Positions 3,833-59,520 of a stretch of DNA of 64,000 nt are shown one piece after another. Source of the stretch: Polyangiales bacterium. Lineage in GTDB: Bacteria > Myxococcota_A > Polyangia > Polyangiales > Ga0077539. A model generated the notes under the pieces. That model was not told the DNA's origin, ran no database searches, and worked only from the letters and a program-made list of their open reading frames with translations. Made by a program: the position numbers and the translations under genes. Position 1 is the first letter of the stretch. Each line of letters opens with the position of its first letter. Location of the stretch: positions 64,001-128,000 of the forward strand of contig JBGARZ010000017.1 of NCBI GenBank assembly GCA_044229975.1, given 5' to 3'.

Positions 3833-3868
3833 GCGCGCCGATTGCGCCCCTCAGCGCACCGCCTGCGC
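3833..3868. promoter_or_regulatory. Tandem activator sites GCGCA-N5-TGCGC
   Basis: GCGCGccgatTGCGC (3833) and perfect GCGCAccgccTGCGC (3854), 21 bp apart. Confidence 0.7.
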
Positions 3869-3899
3869 CGCGTCCCATCCACCTCCTTCCGGCGCAGGG

Positions 3900-3915
3900 C
3901 GGCACGGGGGCTGCG
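3900..3915 (+). promoter_or_regulatory. sigma54 promoter of CBS gene
   Basis: CGGCACGGGGGCTGCG (GG-N10-GC). Confidence 0.65.
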
Positions 3916-3928
3916 TTGGGTGCGGCCC

Positions 3929-4354
3929 ATGTCGAAGTCCATCCCAGCCATCCAGAAGTACATGACCACCGCGCCCCACTCGATCGGGGTCGATCAGCCG
4001 ATGAGCCGCGCGCACGCCGTGATGCGCGAGCACCGCATCCGGCACCTCCCGGTGCTCTCGGGCGGCCGCCTGATGGGCGTCGTCAGCGAGCGCGACCTCC
4101 ACATCATGGAGACGATCTCGGGGGTCGACCCTAGGACCGTCGGCGTCAACGAGGCGATGTCTACGGTCGTCTACGCGGTGCCGCCAGACGCGCCCCTCGA
4201 CGAGGTCGCCCTGGAGATGGCCGAACACCGGTACGGCTGCGTCGTGGTGATGGAGCACGAGAAGGTTGTCGGCATCTTCACCACCGTCGACCTCGCGCGC
4301 GTCCTCGCGGAGCTGCTCCAGGGCCGCCTGGGCAAGGAGGGGCGCGCGGCATGA
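3929..4354 (+). CDS. CBS domain pair protein
   Basis: YMT..P..IRHLPV..GVVSERDL..AMS..GCVVV..VVGIFTTVD; ATG at 3929 within the long track ORF. Confidence 0.88.
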   Translation: MSKSIPAIQKYMTTAPHSIGVDQPMSRAHAVMREHRIRHLPVLSGGRLMGVVSERDLHIMETISGVDPRTVGVNEAMSTVVYAVPPDAPLDEVALEMAEHRYGCVVVMEHEKVVGIFTTVDLARVLAELLQGRLGKEGRAA

Positions 4355-4362
4355 AGGCTGCT
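4347..4362 (+). promoter_or_regulatory. sigma54 promoter candidate for the SDR-kinase unit
   Basis: CGGCATGAAGGCTGCT, overlapping the CBS stop codon. Confidence 0.5.
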
Positions 4363-4403
4363 CAAGGACAGTCGTGTACAACCACGTTGAGGGAGATGCG
4401 AAC

Positions 4404-5162
4404 ATGAAGCGCTTCGAAGACAAGGTCGTGTTGGTGACGGGCGGCGGCGCGGGCATCGGCCGCGCGGCGGCCCTGGCCTTCGCGCGTGAGGGCGCCGCGG
4501 TGATGATCGGCGACCTGAGCGCCGAGGGAGAGGAGGTGCTCGGGGAGATCCGGGCGGCGGGGGGCTCCGCGCGCTTCATGCGCTGTGACGTCTCGGAGCC
4601 GTCGGCCGTCGAGGCGCTGGTGTCCGCCGCGGTCTCCACCTTCGGGGGCTTGGACGTAGCGTTCAACAACGCTGGCGTGGAGGGCGCCTCGGCGCCGACC
4701 GAGTCGTACCCCCTCGACGCCTGGAACCGCGTGATCGCCACCAACCTCACGGGGGTGTTCCTGTGCATGCGGGCGCAGATCCCCTACCTGCGCACGCGCG
4801 GCGGCGGGGCCATCGTCAACAACGCCTCCATCCTCGGTCACGTGGCCTTCGCCAACGCCCCCGCCTACGTCGCCGCCAAGCACGGGCTCATCGGGCTCAC
4901 CAAGGCTGCGGCTCTGGAGAACGCGCCTCACGGCGTGCGCGTCAACGCCGTCTGCCCGGCCTTCATCGACACCCCCATGCTCACCCGCGCCGGCCTCACC
5001 GCAGATCCCGCCGCCCGCGCGGCGGTCGAGGCGATGCACCCGGTCCACCGGCTCGGACGAGCCGAGGAGGTTGCGGCGGCCGTGCTCTGGCTCGCCTCGG
5101 CCGAGGCATCGTTCGTCACCGGGACCGCGATGCTGGTAGACGGCGGCTACGTCGCGCAGTAG
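4404..5162 (+). CDS. Short-chain dehydrogenase/reductase (classical SDR)
   Basis: TGGGAGIG, NNAG, YVAAK, VDGG motifs. Confidence 0.93.
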   Translation: MKRFEDKVVLVTGGGAGIGRAAALAFAREGAAVMIGDLSAEGEEVLGEIRAAGGSARFMRCDVSEPSAVEALVSAAVSTFGGLDVAFNNAGVEGASAPTESYPLDAWNRVIATNLTGVFLCMRAQIPYLRTRGGGAIVNNASILGHVAFANAPAYVAAKHGLIGLTKAAALENAPHGVRVNAVCPAFIDTPMLTRAGLTADPAARAAVEAMHPVHRLGRAEEVAAAVLWLASAEASFVTGTAMLVDGGYVAQ

Positions 5163-5179
5163 GCGCGACGGAACGCGAC

Positions 5180-6808
5180 ATGGCCGACCCGCCCGCCGAG
5201 ACCCTGTTCGGGGAGATGAAGCGCTACGTGCGCTTTTCGGACGACGACGCCCGCGCGCTGGCCGCCTTCGGCGAGGTCGCTGCGCCCCACTTCGAGCGCA
5301 TCGCGGCGGAGTTCTACGAGCGGGTGCGCGAGCACGAGGAGGCGCACGCGGTCTTCACCGGCGAGGCGCAGATCGAGCGGCTGCGGCGCACCCTGGTGCG
5401 CTGGATGGAGCGGCTCTGCTCCGGCCCCCACGACGAGGGCTACTACGCCGAGCGGGCTCGCATCGGTCGGGTCCATGTTCGCATCGGGCTCCCGCAGCGG
5501 TACATGTTCACGGCCATGGCGCTGATGCGCGGCGCCTTCGAGCACCTGGCCGAGGGGATGGCCGCGGGGGAGGCGACGGCAGCCCGCACGGCGCTCTCGC
5601 GGGTGCTCGACCTGGAGCTCGCCATCATGCTGGAGACCTACCGCGAGGACTATGTTGAGCGCCTCCAGCGCACCGCGCGGCAGGAGAACGACCGCCTGCG
5701 CGGCGAGCTCGCGCGCAGCGAGCACCGGGCCGCGAGCGCGGTCGCGTTCGCCCGGGTGATGGTGGTGGGGACGGACGCCGCGGGCGTGATCGTGCTCTTC
5801 AACCACGAGGCCGAACGGGTCACCGGCTACGCCGCGGACGAGGCGCTGGGCCGGGCCTTCGTCGACCTGCTCGTGCCCGAGTCGCTGCGCGACGGCGACG
5901 GCGACGACGCGCGCTTCCTGCGGGCCGCCGCGGGCTCCTCGTCGACCCCCGAGGTCTGGGATGCGCCGGTCCGGGTGCGCTCGGGTCGCGAACGACTGGT
6001 GCGTTGGCTCCTCTCGCCGGTGCCGCCCACGCCCGACGACACGGCCACGCTCTACGCCGTCGGCCGCGACGTTACGGACGAGAACGTCTTGTGGGAGCGG
6101 ACGCGCCAGAGTGAGCGCCTCGCCGCGGTGGGCACGCTCGCGGCGGGCCTCGCGCACGAGATCCGCAACCCCCTCAACGGCGCGCTGCTGCACGTCACCT
6201 ACCTGGAGCGCGCCCTGCGGCGCTCGGACGGCACCCCTGACGCCCTGGAGGCGGCGCGCTTCATCGGCGTCGAGATCCAGCGGCTGTCAGCGCTGGTGCG
6301 GGACTTCCTCGTCTTCGCGCGCCCCGCCCCGCCCGACCGCCGGGCCCGCTCGCTGCCGGAGGTCTGCCGGCGCGCGGCCGCGTTGGTGACCGGGGACGCC
6401 GAGCGTGCGAAGGCCGCCATCGCCCTCGACCTGCCCGCCGCCGACCTCATGGTCCAGATCGACGCCGACAAGATCGAGCAGGTGCTGCTGAACCTCCTGC
6501 GCAACGCCCTCGACGCCGTCGGCGGCGCGGGCGGCGGCCGGGTCACGCTGCGGGCGCGCCGGGAGCCGCGCCAGGCCCTCGTCGAGGTCGAGGACGACGG
6601 GCCGGGGCTCCCCTCGCCCGACGCGCCCATCTTCGACGCGTTCTACACGACCCGTCCGCAGGGCACCGGCCTCGGGCTCGCCATCGTGCACCGCGCGGTG
6701 AGCGACCACGGCGGGACCGTCGAGGTCGAGAGCCGCATGGGGCGCACCGTGTTCCGGGTGCACCTGCCGCTGGGGGGTGGAGCGACAGAGTCACCGGCGG
6801 CGCCCTGA
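5180..6808 (+). CDS. Protoglobin-PAS sensor histidine kinase (globin-coupled, likely O2 sensing)
   Basis: Globin FYE..GRVHVRIGL..LDLELAIMLETY; PAS FNHEAERVTGY; H-box AHEIRNPL; N-box NLLRNA; DDGPG and GTGLGL boxes. Confidence 0.9.
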   Translation: MADPPAETLFGEMKRYVRFSDDDARALAAFGEVAAPHFERIAAEFYERVREHEEAHAVFTGEAQIERLRRTLVRWMERLCSGPHDEGYYAERARIGRVHVRIGLPQRYMFTAMALMRGAFEHLAEGMAAGEATAARTALSRVLDLELAIMLETYREDYVERLQRTARQENDRLRGELARSEHRAASAVAFARVMVVGTDAAGVIVLFNHEAERVTGYAADEALGRAFVDLLVPESLRDGDGDDARFLRAAAGSSSTPEVWDAPVRVRSGRERLVRWLLSPVPPTPDDTATLYAVGRDVTDENVLWERTRQSERLAAVGTLAAGLAHEIRNPLNGALLHVTYLERALRRSDGTPDALEAARFIGVEIQRLSALVRDFLVFARPAPPDRRARSLPEVCRRAAALVTGDAERAKAAIALDLPAADLMVQIDADKIEQVLLNLLRNALDAVGGAGGGRVTLRARREPRQALVEVEDDGPGLPSPDAPIFDAFYTTRPQGTGLGLAIVHRAVSDHGGTVEVESRMGRTVFRVHLPLGGGATESPAAP

Positions 6809-7483
6809 TCAGGCGTCCGCGAAGCGGGGCCGGAGCACGTGGTTCTCCAGGTGGACGTGCGTGAAGACGTCGCGCTCGACCTGTGCGAGCTCGGAGAGGA
6901 GCGTGCGGTAGCTGTTGCACGCCCAGGCGGGCGGCGCGAACCCGTCGGCCGCGGCGTGAACCCTCTCCAGCAGCCCCGCCACCGCCAGGTGCTCGCCCTG
7001 CATCGCGGCGAGCCCCTCGGCCACCTCCGCCCGGTCGGTCCGCCTCGCGGTGAGCGCGGGGAAGAGGGTAGCCTCCTCGTCGTCGAGGTGAACCAGCAGC
7101 GCGGCGGAGAGCGCTTCCACCCCGGCCTTCAGTTCGCGGAGCTTCGGGTTGCGGTCGCCGTGGACTCGGCTCACCTTGGCAGCGAGGGCGCTGGCGAAGG
7201 GCAGCGCCCGGCGGAGGTACTCATGGTGCTTCGCGACGATGTGCGCGACGAGCCGCGGGGTGGAGAGCGTGCGCGGGTCGACCTGCGAGTCGCCGCGGCG
7301 CTCCGCGATGGCCGCGGACAGCTCCGCGACGAGGGCGTCGACGGCGAGGCCCCTCCCCTCCGCCGCTGCCTCGACGCTGATGTCACCGCGGCAGCAGAAG
7401 TCGATGCGGTTGCGCTGGAAGACCTCGGCGCACTCCGAGTGGTCGAGGACGAGGGAGGCGACGGTCTGTTGGCGATCGAGCAT
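6809..7483 (-). CDS. ric: Iron-sulfur cluster repair di-iron protein (Ric/YtfE/ScdA)
   Basis: IDFCCRG, HHEYLR, HLDDEE, ACNSYR, HVHLENHVL. Confidence 0.92.
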   Translation of the reverse strand: MLDRQQTVASLVLDHSECAEVFQRNRIDFCCRGDISVEAAAEGRGLAVDALVAELSAAIAERRGDSQVDPRTLSTPRLVAHIVAKHHEYLRRALPFASALAAKVSRVHGDRNPKLRELKAGVEALSAALLVHLDDEEATLFPALTARRTDRAEVAEGLAAMQGEHLAVAGLLERVHAAADGFAPPAWACNSYRTLLSELAQVERDVFTHVHLENHVLRPRFADA

Positions 7484-7513: not shown

Positions 7514-7529
7514 AGCAGCGGTCGTACCA
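7514..7529 (-). promoter_or_regulatory. sigma54 promoter of ric
   Basis: Minus strand TGGTACGACCGCTGCT. Confidence 0.65.
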
Positions 7530-7571
7530 ACGCAGCAACCCCGGTCCCGACCCGCGGCGGGCGGCGCCCCG

Positions 7572-7607
7572 GCGAAGGTCTTGCGCCGGCCGGCGCAGAC
7601 CCTGCGT
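7572..7607. promoter_or_regulatory. Tandem GCGCA-N5-TGCGC-like sites upstream of ric
   Basis: GCGAAggtctTGCGC (7572) and GCGCAgacccTGCGT (7593), 21 bp apart. Confidence 0.6.
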
Positions 7608-7972
7608 CAGCAGCGGTCGTGGGGGTTGGGGAAGGCGTCGTCGTCGCTCTCGCCGCTGCGGGTCTTCAGGCAGGCGAAGTCCTTCTCGACGAGCACCCGC
7701 AGCGACGCTCCTTCCCCCACCGGCTGCGACCCCTCGATGGCCACACGGTCGGTCTCGCACCACTCCCGCGCGACGACCTCGGGGACGGTGACCACCACGC
7801 GCGCGCCGTCGAGCCGCGCCGACAGCGCGTCACCCAGCTCCAGCGCGTACGACAGCCGGGCGTCCGCGCCGAAGCGCACCGCCTCCTCAACGCGGCCGTC
7901 GCGCCCGAAGGCCTCCACCTCGCTGCGCGTCAGCCGCAGCCGCAACGAGTCTCCGCGCATCCTCAGCTTCAT
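7607..7972 (-). CDS. Conserved hypothetical protein
   Basis: MKLRMRGDSLRLRL...LVEKDFACL...DAFPNP; its ATG overlaps the mobA stop. Confidence 0.75.
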   Translation of the reverse strand: MKLRMRGDSLRLRLTRSEVEAFGRDGRVEEAVRFGADARLSYALELGDALSARLDGARVVVTVPEVVAREWCETDRVAIEGSQPVGEGASLRVLVEKDFACLKTRSGESDDDAFPNPHDRC

Positions 7973-8535
7973 CGTCGCTCCATGTCCTCGGGCGTGTCCC
8001 AGTCGTCGAGCAGCCGCTGCTCGCCCAGCGAGAGCGGCAGCTCCGCGGCGCCGAGCGCGTCGAGCAGCCCTTGTGTCGAGCGCGCCCCGGCCTCCAGACG
8101 GCTCAGCGCCGTGGGGAGCGCGCGCGGGGCGTCATAGCGGGCGAACATCGGCTCCCAACGCCCGCCGCGCCGGGCGGCCACGGCGGGGCCCGGGGCGTCG
8201 GCCGCGAGGAGGGCGCCGAGCAGCGCGCGCGTGACGAAGGGCATGTCGCAGCCGAGGGCGACGCACCGGCCCCCACCGGCCCGGCGGAGCAGCGCCACGA
8301 GCCCTCCCAGCGGGCCGACGCCGGCGGGTTCGTCGTCGAGGGTCTCCACGCCGAGGTGCGCGTACTCGGGACGCCGGCCGACCAGCACGCAGGGGACCGA
8401 GAGCGCCACGCAGTGCCCCCGCAGCCCCTCGACCAGCGCCGCCCCGGTGGGCCCCGGAAGGAGCCCCTTCGGGCGGCCGCCGAAGCGGACAGAGGCGCCG
8501 CCGACGAAGATCCCTGCGACGACCGCGTGCGTCAT
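7969..8535 (-). CDS. mobA: Molybdenum cofactor guanylyltransferase
   Basis: GGASVRFGGRPKGLL, GPLGGL, GCDMPF, EPMFARY, DTPED; ATG 8535 overlaps the upstream stop. Confidence 0.82.
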   Translation of the reverse strand: MTHAVVAGIFVGGASVRFGGRPKGLLPGPTGAALVEGLRGHCVALSVPCVLVGRRPEYAHLGVETLDDEPAGVGPLGGLVALLRRAGGGRCVALGCDMPFVTRALLGALLAADAPGPAVAARRGGRWEPMFARYDAPRALPTALSRLEAGARSTQGLLDALGAAELPLSLGEQRLLDDWDTPEDMERR

Positions 8536-9572
8536 CGCTCGCGCCACGCCTTCGGGAGGTTCGTCGCCATGCCCGCGAAGGCGAGGGCCCAGGCCGCCAG
8601 GGCGACGAACACGAAGGCCCTGGGGATGGCGAAGAGGAAGGGCGCGTCCACGGCGCGGGAGAGCCGGGCCGTCGCCGCGGTGTACATCCCGAGCGGGAAG
8701 ACTGCGCCCCAATAGAGCGCGTCGTAACGCAGCGGGAAGCGCTTGTAGACGTGCCGCCACGCGCCCAGCACGAGCAGCATCGGGATCCACCAGGTGGCCG
8801 TCGACCACCACAGGAGCGTGAAGCCGCGCACGAAGGGAAGCACCTGCGTGAGCACGGGCGAGTGCGCCGCCGCCGCGACCAGCGACGCGCCTGCGAGGGT
8901 GGTGATGGCCGCGGCGCCCATGTTGACCCAGTAGGGCGGCGCGAGGTCGGAGGGCGCGAGGGTAAAGAAGGTGTAGCGGTAGAAGATGAGCGCGATGATC
9001 CAGAGGTAGAGCATCGCGCCGCCGAGCCACATCGCGAGGCAGAAGAAGAGCGCCTCGGCCCGGTGCGACGCGAAGCCTGGCGCGAGCTGCGCGCCGAGGG
9101 CGGCCACCGACTGCGCCGCGACGACGGAGACGAGCCAGCCACCGTTGATGCCCTCGGCGAGCGAGGGCTTCTCGGGCTTCACCGTGAGGAGCGCGAACAC
9201 CCCGTAGGTGAGCGCCGCCCAGAGCGCGATGCCAAACCCCCAGAGGGCCGCCGCGGCGCGCGGGGCGTCGCCCACCAGGAGGCACTGCGAGCCCAGCACG
9301 GAGGTGGCCGCGACGGCGGTGAAGAAGCCCACCGAGCGGCCGTGGTGCAGCAGGTCGGCGACCACGCGGTCGCGGTGGAGGGCCACGCGCGCCAGGGTGA
9401 GCGCCCACACCGCGGGGTAGAGGGCGAGGTTGAGCGCGAAGAGGGCGGCGGCGAGGGTGCGGTAGCCGACGAGGTGCGACGCGACGGAGACGATGCCCGT
9501 GGCCATCACGAGCGCGAACTGCGCCGGGTGCATGGTCGCGAGGGACCCGGAGGGTGCGTCGCGGGCCGTCAT
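8532..9572 (-). CDS. TDT/SLAC1-family anion channel (tellurite resistance/C4-dicarboxylate type)
   Basis: FALVMATGIVS, PPYWVNMGAAAITTLAG, YWGAVFPLGMY; about 10 hydrophobic segments. Confidence 0.88.
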   Translation of the reverse strand: MTARDAPSGSLATMHPAQFALVMATGIVSVASHLVGYRTLAAALFALNLALYPAVWALTLARVALHRDRVVADLLHHGRSVGFFTAVAATSVLGSQCLLVGDAPRAAAALWGFGIALWAALTYGVFALLTVKPEKPSLAEGINGGWLVSVVAAQSVAALGAQLAPGFASHRAEALFFCLAMWLGGAMLYLWIIALIFYRYTFFTLAPSDLAPPYWVNMGAAAITTLAGASLVAAAAHSPVLTQVLPFVRGFTLLWWSTATWWIPMLLVLGAWRHVYKRFPLRYDALYWGAVFPLGMYTAATARLSRAVDAPFLFAIPRAFVFVALAAWALAFAGMATNLPKAWRER

Positions 9573-9793
9573 CCCAGCGAGTCGAGGTGGCGGAGCAGGC
9601 CGAGGTTGAGCAGCAGGCACGCGAGGCTCGCGGCCAGCGCCGGCCACACGACCGCGGCGTCGCCGCCGAGCCAGGCGTTCATCGTGGCGGTGAGCAGCCA
9701 GAGCTGCAGCACCACGAGCGTCAGCACGAAGCAGAGCACCCCGTAAACGACGGTGGTGCGCTGGGCCCGGGTGAGGTGCCGCTTCAGCCCCAA
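9569..9793 (-). CDS. Small two-TM membrane protein (DUF6755-like)
   Basis: LQLWLLTATMNAWLGG motif; tightly coupled between the Rieske and TDT genes. Confidence 0.7.
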   Translation of the reverse strand: MGLKRHLTRAQRTTVVYGVLCFVLTLVVLQLWLLTATMNAWLGGDAAVVWPALAASLACLLLNLGLLRHLDSLG

Positions 9794-9794
9794 G

Positions 9795-10448
9795 TCACAC
9801 CGTCCTCGCGGTGACGCCCACGGCGTACACGTCGTCGCCCACGACCTCGAGCTCGACCTTCGGCAGCGGGCGCGGGGGCGGCCCGGCGACGTTGCGCCCC
9901 GTGCGCAGGTCGAAGTATCCGTGGTGGCAGGGGCAGACCAGCGTCCCCCCGGCGAAGTCGGGCACCACCGCGCAGGACAGGTGTGTGCACGCCTGGCTGA
10001 AGGCCACCACCGTCTCAGCGTCCGGGCGCAGCAGCAGGCACGCGTCGTGGTCGCCCGGGTAGTGGAACATCTTCGCGGTCCCCACGGGCACCTCGCCCAG
10101 CGACGCGACCTTCACCCGCGGCGGCGCGCGGCGGGCGCGCACGAGGTGCTGCCCGGCGATCCACGCCTGCCCAACCACGAAGGCCCCGCTGGTGAGCACC
10201 AGGAACTTCGCGAGGTCGCGCCGCGCCACGTACTGGTCCTGCGGCCAGTCGATGGGGAAGTCCTGGCGCCACCGGGGCTGCTCGCCCATCGGGCGCCCGT
10301 CGGGGGCGACCGTAACGTCGTCGGGGTCGCGCGTGGGGGCGTACACGTCCGAGCGCGCGGTGCCCGTGAGCCCCTCGCGGCCGGGCGAGTCGACGCGGGG
10401 GTCGAGCGCCCGGTCCTGCTCGAAGCGGCGCTGCGGGTCGTCAGGCAC
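9795..10448 (-). CDS. Membrane-anchored Rieske [2Fe-2S] protein
   Basis: CTHLSC and CPCHHG boxes, GPPPRPL; ARRDLAKFL twin-Arg-like motif before a hydrophobic helix. Confidence 0.9.
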   Translation of the reverse strand: MPDDPQRRFEQDRALDPRVDSPGREGLTGTARSDVYAPTRDPDDVTVAPDGRPMGEQPRWRQDFPIDWPQDQYVARRDLAKFLVLTSGAFVVGQAWIAGQHLVRARRAPPRVKVASLGEVPVGTAKMFHYPGDHDACLLLRPDAETVVAFSQACTHLSCAVVPDFAGGTLVCPCHHGYFDLRTGRNVAGPPPRPLPKVELEVVGDDVYAVGVTARTV

Positions 10449-10451
10449 GGC

Positions 10452-11111
10452 TCACACCTCCACGTCGGCGAAGGGGTCGGCGCTGTCGGCGCCCAGCACC
10501 GGGAGGCGCACCGTCCGCGGGCGGGCGTGCTCGTCCATGGCGGCGACCACGTCCACGATCACGTCGCGCGCGGCGCCCTTCGGGGCCATCACGTTCACCC
10601 GGGTGGTGATGGTCTGGTCGCCGAAGCGGAAGCGGTTGACCGGCGTGGACTGCGGGCGCAGCGCCAGCACCTGCTCGCGCGTCCCGAAGAAGAGCGCCTG
10701 GCTCGGGCAGACCGTCGCGCACATGGGCCGCTTGCCCGCCGAGGAGCGGTCGTAGCACATGTCGCACTTCATCATGATCTGCCGGTCGAGGTAGAGCTCG
10801 GGCACCCCGAAGGGGCACGCCACCACGCAGTTGCCGCACGCGATGCACCGCGGCTTGCGGGCGCTCTGCACCACCCCGTCGGCGGTGCGCTTGATGGCGT
10901 CGGCGGGGCAAACCTCCGCGCAGGTCGGCTGCTCGCAGTGCATGCAGACCACGGGCACCGTCTGCACGGAGCTCGCGCGATCGACGTACTCCAGGTGGAT
11001 CATCGATTCGCCGCGGTGGGTGTCGCACTCGCTGCACGCCTGCACGCAGGCCTGGCATCCGATGCAGCGGCTCGGGTCGATGAAGAACTCCAGGTGGGCG
11101 GGCACGGGCAT
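10452..11111 (-). CDS. Four-cluster [4Fe-4S] electron transfer subunit (DmsB/NrfC-like)
   Basis: CIGCQAC..C, CMHC....C...CP, CIACGNC...CP, CDMC...C...CP. Confidence 0.92.
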
Positions 11112-11124
11112 GGGGCGTCTCCGG

Positions 11125-13392: not shown

Positions 13393-13396
13393 GCGG

Positions 13397-14464: not shown

Positions 14465-14735
14465 CGTGGGTGGTTCTTACAGCCCCTGCCGCCGGGGCGG
14501 AAGCCTCCGCATCGTCGATCCTCGCGGGGTCGCCCGGCGGTCTGCACAGCACCGCGCCCCGCCGCCCGCCGGACGGCAACAGGAATCCCACGCACCCCGG
14601 GCAGACCGCGCAGACCGCGACGAACGTCGTGCCGACGTAGCGATCGCAGTCCACCGTCAGTCGGCGCACCACGGTCCCTTCCACGGTGACCATCTCCTGC
14701 ACCCCGATGTCACGCTCGACGAGGTCCGCCATCAT
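14457..14735 (-). CDS. Small five-cysteine protein, first gene of the Mo-enzyme operon
   Basis: GGAG 8 nt upstream and a sigma54 box; stop overlaps the next GTG; gapless similarity to the N-terminal domain of 34027-34677. Confidence 0.75.
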
Positions 14736-15694: not shown

Positions 15695-15719
15695 GGGGAA
15701 TGCTCCTTCACGACGCGCC

Positions 15720-16213: not shown

Positions 16214-16248
16214 GCGCAGACGCTGCGCCCCACGCGCAAGGCGTGCGA
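16214..16248. promoter_or_regulatory. Tandem GCGCA-N5-TGCGC sites between divergent sigma54 promoters
   Basis: Perfect GCGCAgacgcTGCGC (16214) and GCGCAaggcgTGCGA (16234). Confidence 0.72.
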
Positions 16249-26412: not shown

Positions 26413-26998
26413 GACGGAGCCGCTCAGCAAGGGGGAGGCCGGACGCGTCGGCCCGCGGGTTCGCGACGCTCGACGAAGGTTGGCGCAAGGCGTGCGCCTG
26501 ACACGCGAGACCTGCGCCTGCCGGGGGTGCAGCGTGGTCGTGCTTCGGGGAGCTGCTCGCGACAGGGGTGGCCGTGACGTCGTCTCCGGAGCCCGCGCGG
26601 TCGACCGCGGCGAGCACGTCGGCCGGCAGACGCGCCTCGCACCACGGGAACAGCTCGCGCTCCTCGAAGCGGACGTGCTCGCGGAGCAGAGCCGCGAACA
26701 TCGCCGCCGCCCTGCGATCGCCGCCCGCGGAGGCCTCGACGAATGCGCGCACCGCGGCGTGCTCGCGCTCGACCCGCAGGGCGAGGGCGTCGCCGCCGAA
26801 CAGGCGTAGCGCGGGCAGCAGGACCGACTCCTCGACGCGGAAGTGGGGCTCCAGCTCGCGTTCGAAGTGCGCGCTCAGCGCTGGACCGAGGGAGGGGTCC
26901 ATGGGCACAGCAATGGCCCGGCGCGCGACATCGCGGGCCAGTACGAGCGCGCGGTGGTGCTCTGCGGAGAGGCGATGGAGTCGGGGGTCGCGGATCAC
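26375..26998 (-). CDS. Hemerythrin (HHE) domain protein with probable read-through tail
   Basis: LSAEHH, HFRVEE, EH, HVRFEERELF. The domain ends near 26600 but the frame runs across the cco promoter. Confidence 0.75.
   Translation of the reverse strand: MIRDPRLHRLSAEHHRALVLARDVARRAIAVPMDPSLGPALSAHFERELEPHFRVEESVLLPALRLFGGDALALRVEREHAAVRAFVEASAGGDRRAAAMFAALLREHVRFEERELFPWCEARLPADVLAAVDRAGSGDDVTATPVASSSPKHDHAAPPAGAGLACQAHALRQPSSSVANPRADASGLPLAERLRHADRACHVVRPR
26426..26441 (-). promoter_or_regulatory. sigma54 promoter of the cco operon
   Basis: Minus strand CGGCCTCCCCCTTGCT; GC lies 14 nt before ATG 26412. Confidence 0.55.
26483..26517. promoter_or_regulatory. Tandem GCGCA-N5-TGCGC sites upstream of the cco operon
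   Basis: Perfect GCGCAaggcgTGCGC (26483) and ACGCGagaccTGCGC (26503). Confidence 0.7.
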
Positions 26999-30992: not shown

Positions 30993-31028
30993 GTGCAGCC
31001 GGTTCGCCGTGCGGCGCAGAACGTGCGC
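30993..31028. promoter_or_regulatory. Tandem GCGCA-N5-TGCGC sites
   Basis: GTGCAgccggTTCGC (30993) and perfect GCGCAgaacgTGCGC (31014). Confidence 0.68.
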
Positions 31029-33628: not shown

Positions 33629-34030
33629 ATGTCACCCACGCTCGCTCCGACCCGACGAGTCCTGCTCATGGAGGACGACGCCTCCGCGGGGGGCAGGCTC
33701 GCGCAGATGCTGCGCGAGGACGGCTACGAGGTGGAGTTCGTGCCCGACGGGGAGACGGCGATCTCGCGGCTCCGACGCTCCCCGCCCCCGGACGTGCTGG
33801 TGGCCGACTACCGGCTCCCGGGGATCGATGGGCTCGGCGTCGCGGCCTTCGTGCGGGATCGATGGCCGGGCATGCCGGTGATCATGGTCACCAGCTACCC
33901 CGAGGTGATCGAGCGCGTCACCCGTCGCGACGGCACGCCGATGGTCATCCTCGGCAAGCCCCTCACGTATGCGGACCTCGTCCGCGAGCTGGAGCGGGGA
34001 CGCCGCGTCGACCCGACCCCGGGGTCGTGA
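33629..34030 (+). CDS. Single-domain response regulator
   Basis: VLLMEDD, DVLVADYRLPGIDG, IMVTS, KP. Confidence 0.88.
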   Translation: MSPTLAPTRRVLLMEDDASAGGRLAQMLREDGYEVEFVPDGETAISRLRRSPPPDVLVADYRLPGIDGLGVAAFVRDRWPGMPVIMVTSYPEVIERVTRRDGTPMVILGKPLTYADLVRELERGRRVDPTPGS

Positions 34031-41259: not shown

Positions 41260-41294
41260 GCGCAGCTTCTGCGCCTCCCGGGCAAACCGTTCGC
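41260..41294. promoter_or_regulatory. Tandem GCGCA-N5-TGCGC sites
   Basis: Perfect GCGCAgcttcTGCGC (41260) and GGGCAaaccgTTCGC (41280). Confidence 0.68.
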
Positions 41295-49156: not shown

Positions 49157-49190
49157 GGCCGAGCCGGCCTGCTCACCTTCGCCGGGGCAC

Positions 49191-50540
<1,350 letters not shown>

Positions 50541-50643
50541 CGGGTTGTCTCGGGGTGCGTTGCGGAGGCGGTCTGAAACGGTTCACTCCCTATACCGCAG
50601 CGGCCTTCGACGCATTGCCTCTTCCGCCGGGGAGGGGAGGAGC

Positions 50644-51534: not shown

Positions 51535-51576
51535 GGCGGTCCCTTTCGGTACGTCGGTCACGTCGACGTACAAGCC

Positions 51577-51591
51577 GCAATGGTCGTGCCG
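51577..51591 (-). promoter_or_regulatory. sigma54 promoter of the second pdo
   Basis: Minus strand CGGCACGACCATTGC, near consensus. Confidence 0.78.
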
Positions 51592-51652
51592 GTCGTCCGA
51601 TCGCATTCTCCCAGGAGGGCCGATGCTTCCGATGTAACAGGCGGTGGTGAGC

Positions 51653-51684
51653 CGTTTCATCGGGACGTTTCATCTCGTTTCATC
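51653..51684. repeat. Three exact CGTTTCATC direct repeats
   Basis: Starts at 51653, 51666 and 51676, between divergent sigma54 promoters. Confidence 0.8.
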
Positions 51685-51724
51685 GGATTGAGCCCGGTCG
51701 CCCCGACGTCGCGCCGTCCCCGTG

Positions 51725-53068: not shown

Positions 53069-53545
53069 TCAGATGAAGATGATCTGCGAGCCGGCGGCCT
53101 TGTCGTAGAAGTCGACCGCGCTGATGACGTCCTTCACCTGCGGCGCGAGGTCTTCGCGCTTCAAGCGGAACATGTCCATCGCGAGCTGGCAGGCGTAGAG
53201 CTCGGCGCCCGCGTCGCTCAGGATCTGTAGGAACTCGGGCACCGGCGGGATGTCGAGCTTCTCCATCTCCTTGCGCATCGCGACGCTCGCGAGCGCCTCG
53301 ACGCCGGGCAGCCCGGCGAGCATCGCCGGGACGGGCACGGAGGTGTTGCCGACGAGGGACAGGTGCAGGTGGTCGGCCTTCCCCTTGGTGACGATGTCGA
53401 GGCCCCAGAAGGTGAAGAAGAGCACCGCCTCGATGCCGGACATGCGCGCGGCGTTGGCGAGAATGAGGCCGGGGTAGGCCATGTCGAGGCTGCCCTTCGA
53501 ACAGATGATGCTGACCTTGCGGATCGGTTCGTGGTTGTCGCTCAT
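53069..53545 (-). CDS. DsrE2/DrsH-like sulfur carrier
   Basis: SIICSKGSLDMAYPGLILA, FFTFWGL, YACQLAMDM. Confidence 0.88.
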   Translation of the reverse strand: MSDNHEPIRKVSIICSKGSLDMAYPGLILANAARMSGIEAVLFFTFWGLDIVTKGKADHLHLSLVGNTSVPVPAMLAGLPGVEALASVAMRKEMEKLDIPPVPEFLQILSDAGAELYACQLAMDMFRLKREDLAPQVKDVISAVDFYDKAAGSQIIFI

Positions 53546-53561
53546 GAAGTCCTCGCTCGGG

Positions 53562-53876
53562 TTACAGACACGATTTCGGCTTCGGGGTGCCGGCGATGCG
53601 CGCGATGAGCTTCACCGGGCCCTTCGGGAAGAGCCCGTAGAGGTCCTTGGTGCCCACCCCGGTGCGCGCGGTGATGCGGCGCATGCCTGGGGTCTGCCCC
53701 TGCTCCTGGAAGTCGGCGCGGACGAAGTCGATCACCCGCCAGCTCGCGGGCGCGAGCGCGACGCCGAGCTCGGCGGCGACGGCCTCGCCGACCTCCCTCG
53801 TCCACTCACCGGCGCGTGTCAGGTAGCCCTCCGCGTCTACTTCCACGGTCCTGCCCGCGTAGTTCTTGTTCGTCAT
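53562..53876 (-). CDS. tusE: TusE/DsrC-family sulfur relay protein (single C-terminal Cys)
   Basis: DAEGYL, W, LYGLFPKGP, IAG.PKP..CL; lacks the second Cys of DsrC. Confidence 0.85.
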   Translation of the reverse strand: MTNKNYAGRTVEVDAEGYLTRAGEWTREVGEAVAAELGVALAPASWRVIDFVRADFQEQGQTPGMRRITARTGVGTKDLYGLFPKGPVKLIARIAGTPKPKSCL

Positions 53877-53919
53877 CGATTGTTCTCCTTCACTCGTGCG
53901 GCACGCGTCGCGCGCCGGG

Positions 53920-55146
53920 TCAGGTCTCCGGGGGCCTCTCCTTGCCCACCATCGAGAGGCGCGTCGGAACGGGGATGGGCCGCGCCGGGAGCAGCCCGTT
54001 CCAGTACATCCACTGGAAGGCCACCTTGCCCCAGTGGTTGGCGCGGCTCTCCGCCAGCAGCGTGAACGGCCCCGCGAGGGGTAGCGGGTAGCGGCCGGGC
54101 AGCGGTTCCACGTCGTAGTTGAAGTCGATTAGCATCGCCTTGCCGCCGCCCGTCTCGACGAAGCAGTTGGCGTGGCCGTCGAAGCCGCCTTCGGTGGGGC
54201 GACCCTCGGCGATGCGCACCAGGTCGTGCACGAGGGTCTCGGCCTGGAAGTGCGCGACGCTGCCGGCCTTCGAGGTGGGGAGGTCGGTCGCGTCGCCCAG
54301 CACGAAGACGTCGTCCATTCCCTTCGCCCGCAGCGTCCCCGGGTCGGTGGGAATGAACGCGAGCTCGTTGCCGAGCTTCTGGCGCTCGACCCACGCGGCG
54401 CCCGAGTGGGTGGGCACGCTCACTAGGAGATCGAAGGGCTCCTCGCGGTCGTCGAAGGAGCGCAGGACGCGCCGCGCGCCGTCGACGGAGCCCGTGTTGA
54501 ACTCGGTCACCACCTTGATGCCCTTGTCCTGGATGAGGTGCGCGAGCCGCTTCGCCGCGAGTGGCTTGGTGAACACCGCGTCGAGCGGCGTGACGAACAC
54601 CACCTCCGTCCTCTCGCGCAGCCCCCGCCGCTTCAAGAACTCGTCGGCGAGGAACAGGAACTCAAGCGGCGCCACCGGGCACTTGATGGGCATCTCGACC
54701 ACATTGACGACCAGCCGCCCTCCCGCGAACTGGTCGAGCGCCGCGCCCAGCCGACGCGCCCCGTCCAGCGTGTAGAACTCGTGTGCGCTCGCCTCGGCGT
54801 CGGCCAGGCCCTCCAGGAGGTCTGGGCGGATGCGGCACCCCGAGGCGATCACCAGCACGTCGTACGGGACCGTGTCGCCGTCGGACAGCGTCACCTCGCG
54901 GCGCACGGGGTCCACCGCCTCGACGCCCTGGCGCACCCACTCGACGCCGTGCGCGAAGGTGTCCTCCCGCGGCCGCGACAGCTCCGTCGATCCGCCGAAC
55001 GGCACGAACAGCAGGCCGGGCTGGTAGAGGTGCTCCGTCGCGGGGTCCACGACCGTCACCACCCAGTCGGCGGGAAGTCGATGCTGGCTCGCGTTGGCGA
55101 CGATGGTCCCGGCGGTGCCCGCCCCAAGGATGACGAGGTGCTTCAT
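53920..55146 (-). CDS. sqr: Sulfide:quinone oxidoreductase-like flavoprotein (type III-like)
   Basis: GAGTAG, HLYQPG, IKCPVAPLE, GDAT..PTSKAG, FDGHANCF. Confidence 0.82.
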   Translation of the reverse strand: MKHLVILGAGTAGTIVANASQHRLPADWVVTVVDPATEHLYQPGLLFVPFGGSTELSRPREDTFAHGVEWVRQGVEAVDPVRREVTLSDGDTVPYDVLVIASGCRIRPDLLEGLADAEASAHEFYTLDGARRLGAALDQFAGGRLVVNVVEMPIKCPVAPLEFLFLADEFLKRRGLRERTEVVFVTPLDAVFTKPLAAKRLAHLIQDKGIKVVTEFNTGSVDGARRVLRSFDDREEPFDLLVSVPTHSGAAWVERQKLGNELAFIPTDPGTLRAKGMDDVFVLGDATDLPTSKAGSVAHFQAETLVHDLVRIAEGRPTEGGFDGHANCFVETGGGKAMLIDFNYDVEPLPGRYPLPLAGPFTLLAESRANHWGKVAFQWMYWNGLLPARPIPVPTRLSMVGKERPPET

Positions 55147-55161: not shown

Positions 55162-55177
55162 AGCAGCGTCCGTGCCG
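55162..55177 (-). promoter_or_regulatory. sigma54 promoter of sqr-tusE-dsrE2
   Basis: Minus strand CGGCACGGACGCTGCT. Confidence 0.68.
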
Positions 55178-55229
55178 ACCACCGCGAGCCGCGCCTTGCG
55201 CCACCCAGCGAGGCGGCTCGGCCTGCGCG

Positions 55230-55265
55230 GTGCAGGTCCTGCGCCTCCGAGCGCAAGGCGTGCTC
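55230..55265. promoter_or_regulatory. Tandem GCGCA-N5-TGCGC-like sites
   Basis: GTGCAggtccTGCGC (55230) and GCGCAaggcgTGCTC (55251), one mismatch each. Confidence 0.65.
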
Positions 55266-55444: not shown

Positions 55445-57946
55445 TCAGCGGGTGCGGCGGAGCGACGCGCGTCGATCGGAGGGGGCGCCGGGATCGCGCC
55501 CCGCGTGGAGCGCGGAGAGCCGCCGGGAGTAGCGCCGGAGCCTCGCGACCGCCCGGCCGTGGACGCTTGCCGGGGGAAACTCGCCGTCGCGCCCGGCGGT
55601 GCCGACCTCGGCGCCCGAGAGGAGCGCAAGTGCCTCGTCGGCCGTGCGCACGGCCCACACGTGAAAGAGCCCCTCGCGGACCGCCTCGACGACCTCGTCG
55701 TCGAGCACGAGGTGCACCGCGTTGGCGAGGGGGATCAGTACGCCCTGGTCGCCCGTGAGGCCCGCGTCGCGGCAGGTCTGGAAGAAGCCCTCGATCTTCG
55801 CGTTGACCTCCCCGACGGGCTGGAGCTGGCCGCGCTGGTCCAGGGACCCGGTGACCGCGACGCCCTGGTCGAGGGGCGCGTCGGCGAGCGCGGAGATGAG
55901 CGCGAGCAACTCGGCGAGGGACGCCGAGTCGCCCTCGATCGGTCCGTAGGATTGCTCGAAGGTGAGCGTCGCGGCGAGGGACAGCGGCTCGCTGCCGCCG
56001 TACAAGCGCACGAGATAGCCGCGGAGGGTCAGGACCCCTTTGGCGTGGATCGCGCCCGAGAGGTCCACCTCCCGCTCGACGCTGCACACCTCGCCGTCGC
56101 CGGGCCCGACCGTCGCCGTCACGCGCGCCGGGACGCCGAAGCAGGCGTCGCCGGACTCGACCACGGTGAGGGCGTTCACCTAGCCGACCTGTTGGCCGGC
56201 GGTCTCCACCAGGAGGACACGCCGGGCGATCTCCGACCGGATCGACCGCTCCAGCAGGCCGGAGCGCGCGCGGCGGGATCGGATGGCGCGGTCGACGTCC
56301 TCGGCCACGATCCGATCGCGCCCCGCCTTGCCCGCCCAGAAGCTGGACTCGCTCACGGTGTCGGCGAGGTCGCCCAGTCGCGTCGACAGGCGACCCTGCC
56401 GTCCGCACAGCCGCGCGCCGTGCTCGATGGCGCGGGCGATCGCGTCCGCGCCCAAGGGGCGGAGTTCGCGCTCGATCACGCAGCGGCTCAGGAACCCCGC
56501 GTAGAGGCTCATCGCGTCGTCCGACCACGGGAGGTCGGGGGCGAACTCAACCTTGACCTTGAAGAGCTCACGGAAGTCCGGGTCGAGGGCGAAGAGCATC
56601 TGGTAGCGCTCCTCGGTGCCGATGAGCACGACCTTCACGTCGAGCGGAATCGCCGCGGGCCGCAGCGCGACGGTCGGCAGCGGCGAGCCGTCACCGCCGC
56701 CCTCCAGCCGGACCTCCCTCCCGACCAGGGCGCGCTTGAGCACCGACCAGGCGTCCTCGGTCTCCAGGAGGTCGTCGGCGCGCACGACGAGGAACCCGCC
56801 GTTCGCGCGGTGCAGCGCGCCGGGCCGCACCTGGAGGAAGTCCGTCACCAGGCCGTTCGCGGTCGCGCGGTAGTCCGTCCGTCCGGTGAGGTTCTCCGCG
56901 GTCGGGTGCGCCTCCACGACGACCGGGGCCCCCGCCGCGGCCGTGTGGTCGATGAACACGTTGACCTCGTAGCGCGTGAACGGCGTCGGCCGGCTCCGAC
57001 CGGCTCCGACGGCGGTGCCGTCTACCTCGACGTCTGCGTCGCGCTCCGATCCGTCCTCGTCGAGGTCGGTCGGCCCCGGCGGGGTGAGGTCCTGCGCGCG
57101 GTCGACGACGTCGGCGCCCACCCGCGTCAGGTGGTCGAGCACCGGGGCGACGTCGGCGTAGCGGGACTTCAGGTCCGCGAGTAGTGGCTCAACGGCAGCC
57201 TGCACGGCGTCGCGCTCGAAGGCATGCCGCTTCTCCTCCTCCTCGCGCTCCACCAGACGGAGCTGGCGGACAACGGCTTCGATCTCCTGCCCGAAGCGCT
57301 CGGTGCGCTGCGCGAGGGAGTCGCGCTCCTCGGGGGCCAGCGCCGCAAACTGCTCCTCGGTGATCGACTCTCCATCAACGAGCGGCGTCGAGGTGAGGCG
57401 CCCGAGCGAGTAGTCCACCCGAAAGCCCTGGGCGACGCCGACGGCGCCTGCCTGGACCACGACCTCCTTCCTTCGCCGCGCGACGTCGGCGAGCGAAGCG
57501 CGGAGACGCCGGTCGTGGTCCTCGCTCTCGAACGCGCGACGGATCGCCCGCTCGGCGTCGCGGGCGAAGGAGGCCATCTCGCGCGCCAGGCCCGCCGCGC
57601 GTCCGCTGGGGAGCGACAGCGCGAGCGGCCGGTCGGGGGACGAGAAGTTGTGGACGAAGACCCAGTCGGGCGGCGCGGGCCGGGCGCCGGCCGCGGCGCG
57701 AAGATGGGCCAGGACCGCGGTCGTGCGGCCCGAGCCGCTGTCGCCCGCGACGTAGAGGTTGAAGCCCGGCCCGCGCGCCTCGACCCCGAACGCGAGCGCG
57801 TCGAGCGCGTCCTGCTGACCCAGCAGGCTGTCGCACGGGGGGACTTCGGCGGTGGAGTTGAAGGGCAGCGTGGAAGGGTCGAGGTGCGCGCGCAGCTGGT
57901 CGGCGTGCAGCGCCGCGTGCTCACGAATCGGGCGGTACGTCGTCAT
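55445..57946 (-). pseudogene. Lon-like (LonB/YcbZ-type) ATP-dependent protease with an in-frame TAG at 56180-56182
   Basis: GDSGSGRTT, GALHRANGG, FKVKVEF; VG*VNAL; EGDSAS and VNAKIEGF catalytic motifs follow in the same frame. Confidence 0.88.
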
Positions 57947-57958
57947 CGACCGCCGGTG

Positions 57959-58088
57959 AGCAAGGACAGGGCCGTGGCCTGCACCCCACCGCGCGTCCGC
58001 GAACTCAGGAGCAACGCGCAGGTGTTGCGCCGGATGCGCAACCCCGGCGTCGGGGCACGGGTCTCACCGTGACGGCACGCCCGGTGCT
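57959..58088. promoter_or_regulatory. Divergent sigma54 promoters flanking a GCGCA-N5-TGCGC site
   Basis: Minus CGGCCCTGTCCTTGCT (57959-57974); perfect GCGCAggtgtTGCGC (58016) plus a GCGCA half-site (58036); plus CGGCACGCCCGGTGCT (58073-58088). Confidence 0.65.
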
Positions 58089-58106
58089 CAACGAAGACGC
58101 GCTGCC

Positions 58107-58507
58107 ATGAAGCCCAAGATCCTCGTTCCGGTGGACGCGACCTCCCATTCGGCTCTGCTTCCGGTCGCCACCAACGAGGCGCGGTGGCGCGGCGCGGAGC
58201 TGGTCCTCTTGCGGGTGGTGTCGTCGTCGACGCAGCTGCCCCCCGACGTCCCTGCGCGGCCGACGGAGAGCGGCGCGACGCTGCTCGCCCGCAGCGCCCG
58301 CGCCTCTCGGCCGACGTCGACGTGAGCGTGCGGGTGGAGTTCGGGTCGCCCTGGCGGGTCATCGTCGAAGCCGCGGAGGACGAGCGTGCGGCGCTCATCG
58401 TGATGGGCGCGCACGACCAGAGGCTGCTCGACAGTTGGCTCGGCACGACGACCACCCGCGTGCTCGAACACGCCGGGTGTAGCGTGCTGGTGGTGCGGGA
58501 CGCTTGA
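58107..58507 (+). pseudogene. Universal stress protein with deletion/frameshift near 58305
   Basis: KILVPVD..EARWRGAELVLLR in one frame, VRVEFG..LIVMGAH..LGTT in another; paralog of 15254. Confidence 0.82.
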
Positions 58508-58548
58508 AGCGCCCGGACACGCCAGGCCGACGTGCCTGGCGGGGCCCG

Positions 58549-59220
58549 TCAGTGCCAGGGCTCGACGCGGAGCCGGTCGACGACGGCGCGCACCCCCTGC
58601 GTCGCACCGGCGGCGTTCAGGGCCGCCTGACGCTCGGCCCAGGAGCGTACGGATCCGGTGAGGGTGACGCGTCCGTCCTCGTCGGTGATGTCGAAGGAGA
58701 GTGCCTCGTCCCGGGCCTGCCGGGTGAGCGCCTCCCTGACCGCCGTGCGGACGTCCGCCGGTGCAACCACCGGGGCGACGGTGAGGCGGTTGTCGATGCC
58801 GTGCACGCCCGCGAGGTGGCGCACGGCCTCCTCGGCGTCGTCGCGCTGGCTCAGGCACTCGACGACACCTTCGAGGGTGATGACCCCCTGGGCGACGGTC
58901 GTCTGGATGGCCTCGTCGGGCACGCGGACGTCCCACTCCAACGCCCGCCTCGTCGCCTTCGCGATGTCCGCATCGGTGCGCCGCAAGTCGCCGGGGACGT
59001 GCGTCACGAGGTCGTTGGCGACGTCGCGGACGCCCGCGACGCGGTGGGCCGACTGCTGGGCGGCATGTCGCTGGGCCCACGAGTCGACCGTGCCGGAGAG
59101 GGTGACCACGCCGTCCCGCACGCTCACGCCGACGGCGGCGGCGATCCGGGTGTCGAAGCACAGCTGGTTCTGCACGTCGGTCTGGAGCTGGAGGTCGGAC
59201 TTCTTCGGCGTGACTTGCAT
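58549..59220 (-). CDS. Triple BON-domain protein
   Basis: Close paralog of 41405 (shared QQ.AHRVAGVRDVAND and RTDADIA). Confidence 0.88.
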   Translation of the reverse strand: MQVTPKKSDLQLQTDVQNQLCFDTRIAAAVGVSVRDGVVTLSGTVDSWAQRHAAQQSAHRVAGVRDVANDLVTHVPGDLRRTDADIAKATRRALEWDVRVPDEAIQTTVAQGVITLEGVVECLSQRDDAEEAVRHLAGVHGIDNRLTVAPVVAPADVRTAVREALTRQARDEALSFDITDEDGRVTLTGSVRSWAERQAALNAAGATQGVRAVVDRLRVEPWH

Positions 59221-59272
59221 GGCGTTCCTCGATGATCCGCCTGCGACGGGAGGGGCGGGCGGTGATGCTCTC

Positions 59273-59520
59273 AGCACCCGCTGTGCCGCGCGCCGAGGAT
59301 GCGAAGTTCGGGGCGCGAGCGAGCTTCGTGCGCAGGTCGCGCAGCGATTGCGCCGACCCGTGCGCTTGATGCGCCCGCGTGTCGGCGACCACTGTCCTGG
59401 GGCCGAAGCAACGTGTGCTCACGAGGGCATGGCTTGTGTCGCGCGCAAGGCTGCGTGCACCCGGCGACATCCAGTTTGGGAGGAGACGGTCGGTCCTGCC
59501 CGCGCGGCACACCCTCTGCT
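59273..59520. promoter_or_regulatory. Divergent sigma54 promoters with tandem GCGCA-N5-TGCGC sites
   Basis: Minus CGGCACAGCGGGTGCT (59273-59288); perfect GCGCAgcgatTGCGC (59339) and GTGCGcttgaTGCGC (59360); plus CGGCACACCCTCTGCT (59505-59520). Confidence 0.68.

Follow-up and report, generated by a model that had tools for sequence, protein, structure and literature searches.

A chimeric globin–PAS histidine kinase and a probable, clustered NmpR-type regulon in a Polyangiales genome

A 64,000-nucleotide stretch of a Polyangiales genome (assembly GCA_044229975.1, contig JBGARZ010000017.1, positions 64,001 to 128,000; hereafter the window, whose own numbering is used unless a contig is named) carries a series of sigma54 promoters marked by tandem GCGCA-N5-TGCGC palindromes, the gene of a sigma54 activator, and that of a sensor kinase in which a protoglobin, a PAS domain and a histidine kinase body form one chain. 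The boxed genes almost certainly constitute a regulon of a known kind, that of NmpR, and the kinase is very likely, as judged from its sequence, a chimera of an NmpU-type globin and an NmpS-type PAS–kinase body. We propose, with a probability of about 0.6 for the whole chain of events, that the fused kinase, once its heme is free of O2, passes phosphate straight to the activator and thereby switches on the low-oxygen genes of the island. The motif and this type of regulon have already been published; what differs here is the fused kinase variant, a shift in the spacing of the boxes and their clustering.

Tandem palindromes, sigma54 promoters and the activator

Nine perfect GCGCA-N5-TGCGC sites lie in the window. 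Seven belong to promoter regions; the other two fall within genes and have no partner site. An earlier sequence-only reading of this DNA had listed those seven together with two one-mismatch pairs, all of which we found where it had placed them; it had missed the coding sites at 33701 and 60118. Dinucleotide shuffling of the window (100 shuffles) gave a mean of 0.62 and a maximum of 4 perfect sites, in line with that reading's estimate of less than one chance match per 64 kb. The whole genome (10.0 Mb, 71% GC, 39 contigs, 93% complete, 3.04% contamination; labelled G000) holds 83 perfect sites, or 0.53 per 64 kb, and the window, with its nine, ranks first among 141 tiles, ahead of a runner-up with 3. 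Genome-wide, pairs carrying no more than two mismatches are concentrated at start-to-start periods of 20 (n = 10) and 21 (n = 9), with only 0–4 at each other period from 16 to 35. These two periods equal a gap of 5–6 nt, and it is as a start-to-start period that the earlier claim of a partner site 20–21 bp away holds. Fifteen of these 19 pairs are intergenic, as expected from the promoter bias then supposed. Shuffles, genome tiles and spacing controls together reject a chance origin of the sites.

A weight matrix trained on 17 pairs, all outside the window, recovered the nine promoter pairs of the window, a third site at 59319 and a weak coding match at 11023. Each of the nine pairs has an outward-facing sigma54 (GG-N10-GC) box with a score of at least 27 at a distance of 20–60 bp, a combination found at 5.5% of 3000 random intergenic positions under the same scoring weights, which were set by hand from a consensus sequence; the nearby boxes described earlier are thus present throughout. 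At least four pairs serve divergent promoters. The activator carries a GAFTGA-type loop (GSFTGA) and rpoN is present on contig C13, above the TIGR02395 cut-off, so that both components of sigma54 enhancer-dependent transcription are encoded. The box pattern extends beyond both edges of the window (52.3–133.6 kb of its contig, C17) and recurs on contigs C1, C3 and C15. Genes were called with a codon-based caller, and Pfam and NCBIfam upheld the gene identities proposed earlier.

The palindrome is identical to the consensus established for Myxococcus xanthus NmpR by electrophoretic mobility shift and reporter assays (McAllister et al. 2025, PMC11841059), and the boxed genes include CBS-domain, universal stress protein (USP), cbb3 oxidase and hemerythrin genes, as do the published targets; the NmpR link made in the earlier reading is therefore sound. 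As reference for the Nmp proteins we used L127, a Myxococcus-type metagenome contig, not M. xanthus itself, and one of two metagenome contigs retrieved with a published nmpR primer. Its layout follows the published gene order, with CBS first and nmpR fifth, facing nmpS, nmpT and nmpU; it also has Asp54, Val87 and, in front of both the CBS gene and nmpU, box pairs of period 29. L127 NmpR shares 54% identity with the window activator and has the same GSFTGA loop; the recognition helices of the window activator and L127 NmpR read IRTIQYRL and VRKIQYRL, respectively. In a 51-row tree, it falls with L127 NmpR in the NmpR clade (98 in the SH-like approximate likelihood ratio test), in a subclade of its own (support 100), while 17 other NtrC-like proteins of this genome fall outside.

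Two further NmpR-family copies are encoded elsewhere in the genome, one on C3 (92% identical) and a third, canonical-branch member at C32:1014196. It is very improbable that the boxes are read by the C32 paralogue, its similar helix notwithstanding, or by the second sigma54 activator of the window (49191–50540). Genomes of the C32 branch mostly use 29–31 bp spacing, of which this genome has one pair against three in the control; the helix of the 49191 protein is a different one, as are the repeats near its neighbouring promoters.

The fused kinase and the sign of its output

The window kinase has 542 residues arranged as globin, PAS and kinase, whereas NmpU-type proteins have about 390 and lack PAS. 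Its globin is 54% identical to that of L127 NmpU. The kinase domain, however, is 41% identical to L127 NmpS versus 32% to L127 NmpU, and all 87 globin–PAS kinases compared score higher against NmpS than against NmpU. The helix after the phospho-His, HEIRNPLNGALL, resembles that of NmpS (HEIRNPLNAAAL) and not that of NmpU (HELRNPLGVIET). In a 57-row kinase-domain tree, whose rows were picked for their architecture and locus and include a sample of 15 window-type kinases, the clade of the window kinase is nested among NmpS-type kinases and 13 U-type domains form a separate group (96); a quick mixture-model tree agrees (support 96). Uniting the window clade with the NmpU-type kinases was rejected by the approximately unbiased (AU) test (p-AU 0.019). 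The earlier view of this protein as the NmpU counterpart thus stands for its globin, while identity and tree reject it for the kinase half.

All measurable kinases of the window type (42 of 42) and of the PAS-bearing NmpS type (12 of 12) have 29 residues between PAS and His, and the globin-to-PAS distance is 54 in 64 of 69. The junction lies at the end of the last globin helix, which continues into the helix found after the NmpS receiver. An AlphaFold monomer (predicted local distance difference test 86.7, predicted template modelling score 0.43) has continuous helices at 129–190 and 299–348 and is uninformative on polarity. Tyr46, His99 and His326 are invariant in 23 aligned kinases, the heme residues matching Tyr45 and His99 of AfGcHK, the globin-coupled kinase of Anaeromyxobacter sp. 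Fw109-5. With a protoglobin bearing proximal His and distal Tyr fused to HisKA–HATPase, the protein is by its architecture a globin-coupled histidine kinase.

Among 80 related loci, which do not include M. xanthus, the fused kinase adjoins nmpR in 52 and lies within three genes of it in 12; 14 have no nmpR in view and two were not called. NmpS, a U-type kinase or a double receiver was seen in none of these loci, nor in the window. The closest titled records come from uncultured Myxococcota, followed by Sorangium, Polyangium and Nannocystis. All three globin kinases of the genome carry NmpS-type kinase domains, and the sole U-type kinase found lacks a globin. With L127 NmpT as query, the gene set of this 93% complete genome gave only single-receiver matches (34–38%). 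The idea that NmpS is absent from the genome was rejected, as a paralogue occurs on C34; its pairing with a globin-less NmpU-type kinase (C34:189517-193113) is conserved in family member L136.

In the published relay, O2-active NmpU phosphorylates the NmpS receiver and so shuts NmpS off, and also phosphorylates NmpT; NmpR is phosphorylated by NmpS alone, never by NmpU, whose effect in oxygen is to hold the system off (PMC6211767). The wiring of the window locus therefore differs from that relay. What the DNA shows is the motif, its spacing, the promoter geometry, family membership, a chimeric build and conserved heme and phospho-His residues. From these we derive the following plausible mechanism. 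The globin would bind heme and O2, and the kinase would be active at low oxygen, opposite to AfGcHK. This polarity is predicted because the fusion lacks the step at which O2-active NmpU shuts NmpS off, and because the targets match genes induced by hypoxia in M. xanthus, where the CBS promoter rises 6.5-fold (PMC11841059). Phosphate would pass from the kinase to the activator, as the NmpS-type docking helix and the adjacency of the two genes suggest. Two activator dimers, seated on boxes two helical turns apart, would then contact sigma54 polymerase about 30–55 bp away, assemble the ATPase ring and open the promoters. Since the kinase gene belongs to a boxed operon, positive feedback on its own expression is also expected.

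Several observations weigh against this scheme. Polarity is not legible from sequence, and the sole measured relative, AfGcHK, is active with O2. The trees come from quick searches under LG+G4 with no inferred root, and support for the deeper NmpS grouping is no higher than 81–94. The NmpS-type receiver–PAS kinase C34:191545, beside the globin-less NmpU-type kinase, is the best match of L127 NmpS in this genome (48%), with the window kinase second; together with C32:1014196, the C34 kinases imply that other inputs and binders exist. No good sigma54 box for the activator's own gene was found near the 3833 pair. Finally, ric, sqr and a nitrate-reductase-like operon could point to nitric oxide (NO) or sulfide rather than O2.

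There are three other readings of the sensor. The fused kinase might keep the polarity of AfGcHK, with which it shares the globin type, the distal Tyr and the proximal His. AfGcHK is on in the Fe(II)-O2 form and off in the Fe(II) form (PDB 5OHE; PMC8697598); on this reading the boxed genes would be on in air or upon re-oxygenation. We consider this improbable, given the hypoxia-induced character of the matching M. xanthus CBS, cbb3, USP and hemerythrin genes. Furthermore, the globin-to-His distances of PAS-less fusions from other groups (21, 27 and 32) are all out of register with the 26 of the NmpU type (10 of 10). In favour of a polarity opposite to that of AfGcHK, linker changes can invert output in engineered kinases (PMC11164954).

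Alternatively, the activator could be phosphorylated mainly by the C34 NmpS-type paralogue, which has the NmpS-type docking helix, or by the GAF kinase on the side of the stressosome, with the fused kinase serving chiefly as a modulator or O2-gated phosphatase. Both copies of nmpR in this genome are flanked by the stressosome and GAF kinase, which also stand beside the fused kinase in L079 and L141. Nevertheless, a stressosome was seen in only one of the 80 related loci, where the fused kinase so often abuts nmpR; the GAF kinase falls outside the NmpS clade, and the C34 pair lacks a globin and sits on a different NmpS branch. This arrangement, too, we regard as having little likelihood.

There is also a slim chance that the ligand is NO, CO, sulfide or the redox state of the heme, and that the boxed set is a nitrosative or redox-stress regulon. 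AfGcHK responds also to CO and Fe(III), and the boxed targets include ric, a type III sqr with sulfur carriers, and hemerythrin genes. ric is commonly induced by NO. The core targets are nonetheless those of the hypoxia-induced M. xanthus regulon, and Tyr46, tied to O2 recognition in AfGcHK, is invariant. Direct phosphorylation of the activator by an O2-inhibited fused kinase is thus the reading we retain.

Origin of the fusions, box spacing and islands

Globin–kinase fusions appear, from tree comparisons, to have arisen several times; a single origin, with 25 fused kinases forced into one clade, was rejected (AU test, p = 4e-6). The clearest recurrent case lies within one genus, where G325 has the four genes U-T-S-R and G174 has the same flanking genes around one fused gene. 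The kinase domain of the G174 protein is sister to G325 NmpS (99) and its globin, which has diverged (42%), to G325 NmpU (94, on a long branch); its sequence comes from an assembled genome and the junction is taken as assembled. The fused kinases of L131 and L132 have fast-evolving globins that keep a His at the proximal position, and are possibly recent fusions still adapting. Most simply, fusion would follow from an in-frame deletion within an nmpU-T-S operon, with loss of the U kinase, T and the S receiver, leaving the globin in the place of the inhibitory receiver of NmpS. Since the U kinases of intact relays fall in one clade, in trees whose root, as stated, was not inferred, loss from a complete operon makes the simpler reading.

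The gap of 14–15 nt published for M. xanthus is not kept in this genome, which has 28 pairs at gaps of 4–6 nt versus one at 14–16 (controls 2 and 3). In 79 window-type loci, periods 19, 20 and 21 occur 47, 30 and 14 times and periods 29–30 six times; in 25 other loci, periods 29–31 occur 15 times and period 20 once. Genome-wide, short spacing exceeds long in 16 of 19 window-type genomes (195 versus 66; controls 72 and 67), the exceptions being G044, G450 and G451, and long exceeds short in 14 of 18 other genomes (116 versus 31; controls 37 and 36), except in G150, G263, G012 and G225. Single genomes have control counts as high as 12, the search pattern was derived from this genome, and the relatives are not independent. 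G008 (0/0) and G011 (2/4) were omitted from the tally, having no globin kinase in view; in the congener G008 (93% complete) no fused kinase was found, and there are no short-spaced pairs. Sorangium So ce56 showed no excess over its control with the genome-wide pattern (8 versus 8). That fusion causes short spacing was rejected, since other fusions keep 29–30 bp (short/long counts G441 2/20, G295 1/11, G199 0/6). Short spacing, two helical turns in place of three, tracks the activator subclade and not fusion as such.

Drawing these threads together, we give even odds to a broader statement: that a natural globin-coupled kinase shut off by O2 has emerged by repeated collapse, in this phylum, of a four-protein sign-inverting relay, recently within one genus (G325 intact, G174 fused), and that in the fused lineage with most members, to which Sorangium, Polyangium, Nannocystis and this genome belong, the activator shifted to two-turn box spacing. 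Such fusions are natural experiments on how a pathway might keep the sign of its output after losing its inverting step, with the same globin and kinase body joined several times by different linkers. The fused kinases are soluble and suited to assays alongside AfGcHK, and the window type occurs in cultured strains of Sorangium, Polyangium and Nannocystis. The scheme predicts a low-oxygen regulon for a large myxobacterial branch, and the survey shows a shift in enhancer spacing tied to one activator subfamily.

Clustering was a further claim of the sequence-only reading. It holds for this genome, where 25 of the 28 short-spaced pairs (C17 13, C1 7, C3 4, C15 1) fall within three stretches totalling about 119 kb, about 1.2% of the genome; it appears to be specific to this genome and not a trait of its genus, as the 12–16 pairs of congeners, whose assemblies are more fragmented, are scattered over many contigs. 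As paralogues with 75–86% nucleotide identity, the islands differ in arrangement and include the activator, stressosome, cbb3 operon, sqr and Lon-like gene. The C1, C3 and C15 copies could come from a co-binned relative, making the duplication and part of the clustering an assembly artefact, with the window regulon and the fusion unaffected. The contig number and contamination value, the rearranged copies and the single full-length kinase in each of seven congeners lend this some weight. We still judge it unlikely, because the islands are like the genome in GC and third-position GC, paralogy at 75–85% is found in other accessory blocks too, and the contig of the window itself holds 13 of the 28 pairs.

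Outside the islands, a period-19 pair at C29:92226, between a heavy-metal ATPase-like gene and a divergent gene, has near-identical counterparts in G001 and G002 and is a possible member of the regulon. To the left of the island (C17:8055-16161 and 36701-49555), transposase- and recombinase-like genes, AAA-ATPase clusters and lower GC mark an accessory region, its genes named by eye from translations.

Features of the 64-kb window bearing on the regulon (sigma54 boxes with strand; genes with strand where given)
Position	Feature	Sigma54 box	Genes faced, content or remark
1..2349 (+)	Stressosome module: globin-STAS RsbR, RsbS, RsbT, RsbX		RsbR starts 363 bp before the window; module abuts activator gene
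2357..3739 (-)	NmpR-family sigma54 activator, receiver–AAA+–helix-turn-helix		460 aa, TTG start, Asp57, GSFTGA loop; by Pfam and tree
3833..3868	Box pair, period 21	3899-3915 (+)	Operon of CBS-domain, short-chain dehydrogenase and kinase genes
3929..5162 (+)	CBS-domain gene and short-chain dehydrogenase gene		Likely co-transcribed with kinase gene, gaps about 20 bp
5180..6808 (+)	Fused sensor kinase		NmpU-type protoglobin (Tyr46, His99), PAS, NmpS-type HisKA–HATPase (His326)
7572..7607	Box pair, period 21, one-mismatch	7514-7530 (-)	ric (6809-7483)
16214..16248	Box pair, period 20	16158-16174 (-); 16288-16304 (+)	Hemerythrin-USP 15254-16130 (-); 214-aa open reading frame of no known family and receiver gene (+)
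26483..26517	Box pair, period 20	26426-26442 (-)	cbb3 oxidase operon 18589-26412: ATPase, ccoNO, ccoP, ccoG, DsbD-like
30993..31028	Box pair, period 21 (perfect site 31014)	30935-30951 (-); 31070-31086 (+)	61-aa open reading frame and ABC ATPase (-); acg 31139-32164 (+)
33629..34030 (+)	Stand-alone receiver protein		Relatives adjoin fused kinase or nmpR in many related loci
33701..33715	Perfect single box, partnerless		In receiver-domain gene; likely chance
41260..41294	Box pair, period 20	41201-41217 (-); 41348-41364 (+)	ppsA 38782-41187 (-); BON-USP 41387-42508 (+)
55230..55265	Box pair, period 21, one-mismatch	55162-55178 (-)	Type III sqr, TusE/DsrC and DsrE2-like genes, 53069-55146 (-)
58016..58050	Box pair, period 20	57959-57975 (-); 58072-58088 (+)	Lon-like gene with internal stop (-); USP split over two frames (+)
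59319..59374	Three boxes, periods 20 and 21	59273-59289 (-); second, more distant, 59504-59520 (+)	BON 58549-59220; CBS gene (second box)
60118..60132	Perfect single box, partnerless		In CheB-like gene; likely chance

With the gene calls used, a predicted hemerythrin open reading frame overlaps the 26483 pair at its 3' end. The Lon-like gene (55445-57946) has an in-frame TGA at 56180-56182, and its C1 paralogue is a single 818-aa frame; the split USP gene (58107-58507, two frames) and an ABC ATPase fragment (37169-37414) reflect decay or assembly error. The open reading frame at 16363-17007 sits directly behind a boxed sigma54 promoter; at the thresholds used, Pfam and NCBIfam gave no match for it or for those at 26995-27801, 32351-33148, 37725-38672 and 43248-44705. 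The receiver protein at 33629 is a possible phosphate sink, and the stressosome a possible second oxygen input. The latter has a globin-STAS RsbR and is accompanied by a divergent GAF kinase and by a 124-aa gene with a box; in both islands this set lies next to nmpR (window 1-2349 with C17:61967-64551; copy at C3:16116-20486).

Two further regions carry sigma54 elements. An operon at 7607-14735 encodes a NasC-like molybdoenzyme, 4Fe-4S, Rieske, DUF6755, SLAC1/Tdt and MobA-like proteins and has a strong sigma54 box (14787-14803) but no tandem NmpR pair. The second activator (49191-50540, PAS–AAA–helix-turn-helix) lies amid persulfide dioxygenase, rhodanese, TauE and DUF302 genes (44722-51606), with GAAAC/GTTTC repeats of its own near 47190-47230 and 51654-51695 and a paralogous block on C31.

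Comparison with known systems

The closest known system is NmpRSTU of M. xanthus, whose NmpR regulon comprises seven promoters and 23 genes, among them CBS, USP, cbb3 oxidase, hemN-hemerythrin and nmpU genes, with a gap of 14–15 nt in five of the seven promoters and of 5 only at the atypical pilR site (PMC11841059). The window shares with it the consensus, tandem sites, sigma54 boxes, an NmpR-family activator and a protoglobin sensor, as well as CBS, USP, cbb3 oxidase with P-type ATPase, hemerythrin and the kinase gene as targets. It differs in having one fused globin–PAS–kinase in place of NmpU, NmpT and NmpS at the locus, gaps of 5–6 nt in all pairs, at least 25 boxed promoter regions and their arrangement in islands. 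Targets are also added: ric, acg, ppsA, sqr, BON and Lon-like genes in the window, and CoA-transferase and OsmC-like genes outside it. A literature search that covered few subscription journals returned no description of a globin–NmpS fusion. The word fusion is absent from the main text of the 2018 paper (PMC6211767), whose S2 Fig may picture such loci under the name NmpU, and the portions of the 2025 article covered by the search (PMC11841059) describe no such fusion; a hemerythrin follow-up to the Nmp papers also exists (PMC12753109).

Clustering of low-oxygen genes has a parallel in the lxa locus of Burkholderia cenocepacia, with about 50 genes, six USPs and a motif at many intergenic points (PMC3721108). 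Both have clustered genes, a recurrent motif and a composition like that of the host genome, but the lxa motif is the Anr/Fnr-like TGA-N6-TCA, with candidate CRP-family regulators, and neither regulator nor motif is related to those described here. The mycobacterial DosR regulon combines acg, USP and CBS genes with heme kinase input, and uses a NarL-type regulator and GAF-heme sensors, without sigma54. Its resemblance to the window is one of gene content only, the regulator here being of another family.

Among heme-based kinases, AfGcHK has a homologous globin (E = 8e-42), whose distal Tyr and proximal His are kept in the window kinase. The AfGcHK type, however, has about 390 residues, no PAS, a different docking helix and an O2-active state, whereas the window kinase has an NmpS-type body and is predicted to be inhibited by O2. 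FixL is inactive as Fe(II)-O2 (PMC8697598), and FixL–FixJ control of cbb3 genes is cited in PMC11841059. The window system resembles FixL–FixJ in the direct path from heme kinase to regulator that we propose, with the same polarity as predicted here; in FixL the heme resides in PAS, whereas the window kinase has a protoglobin heme site and is paired with a sigma54 activator.

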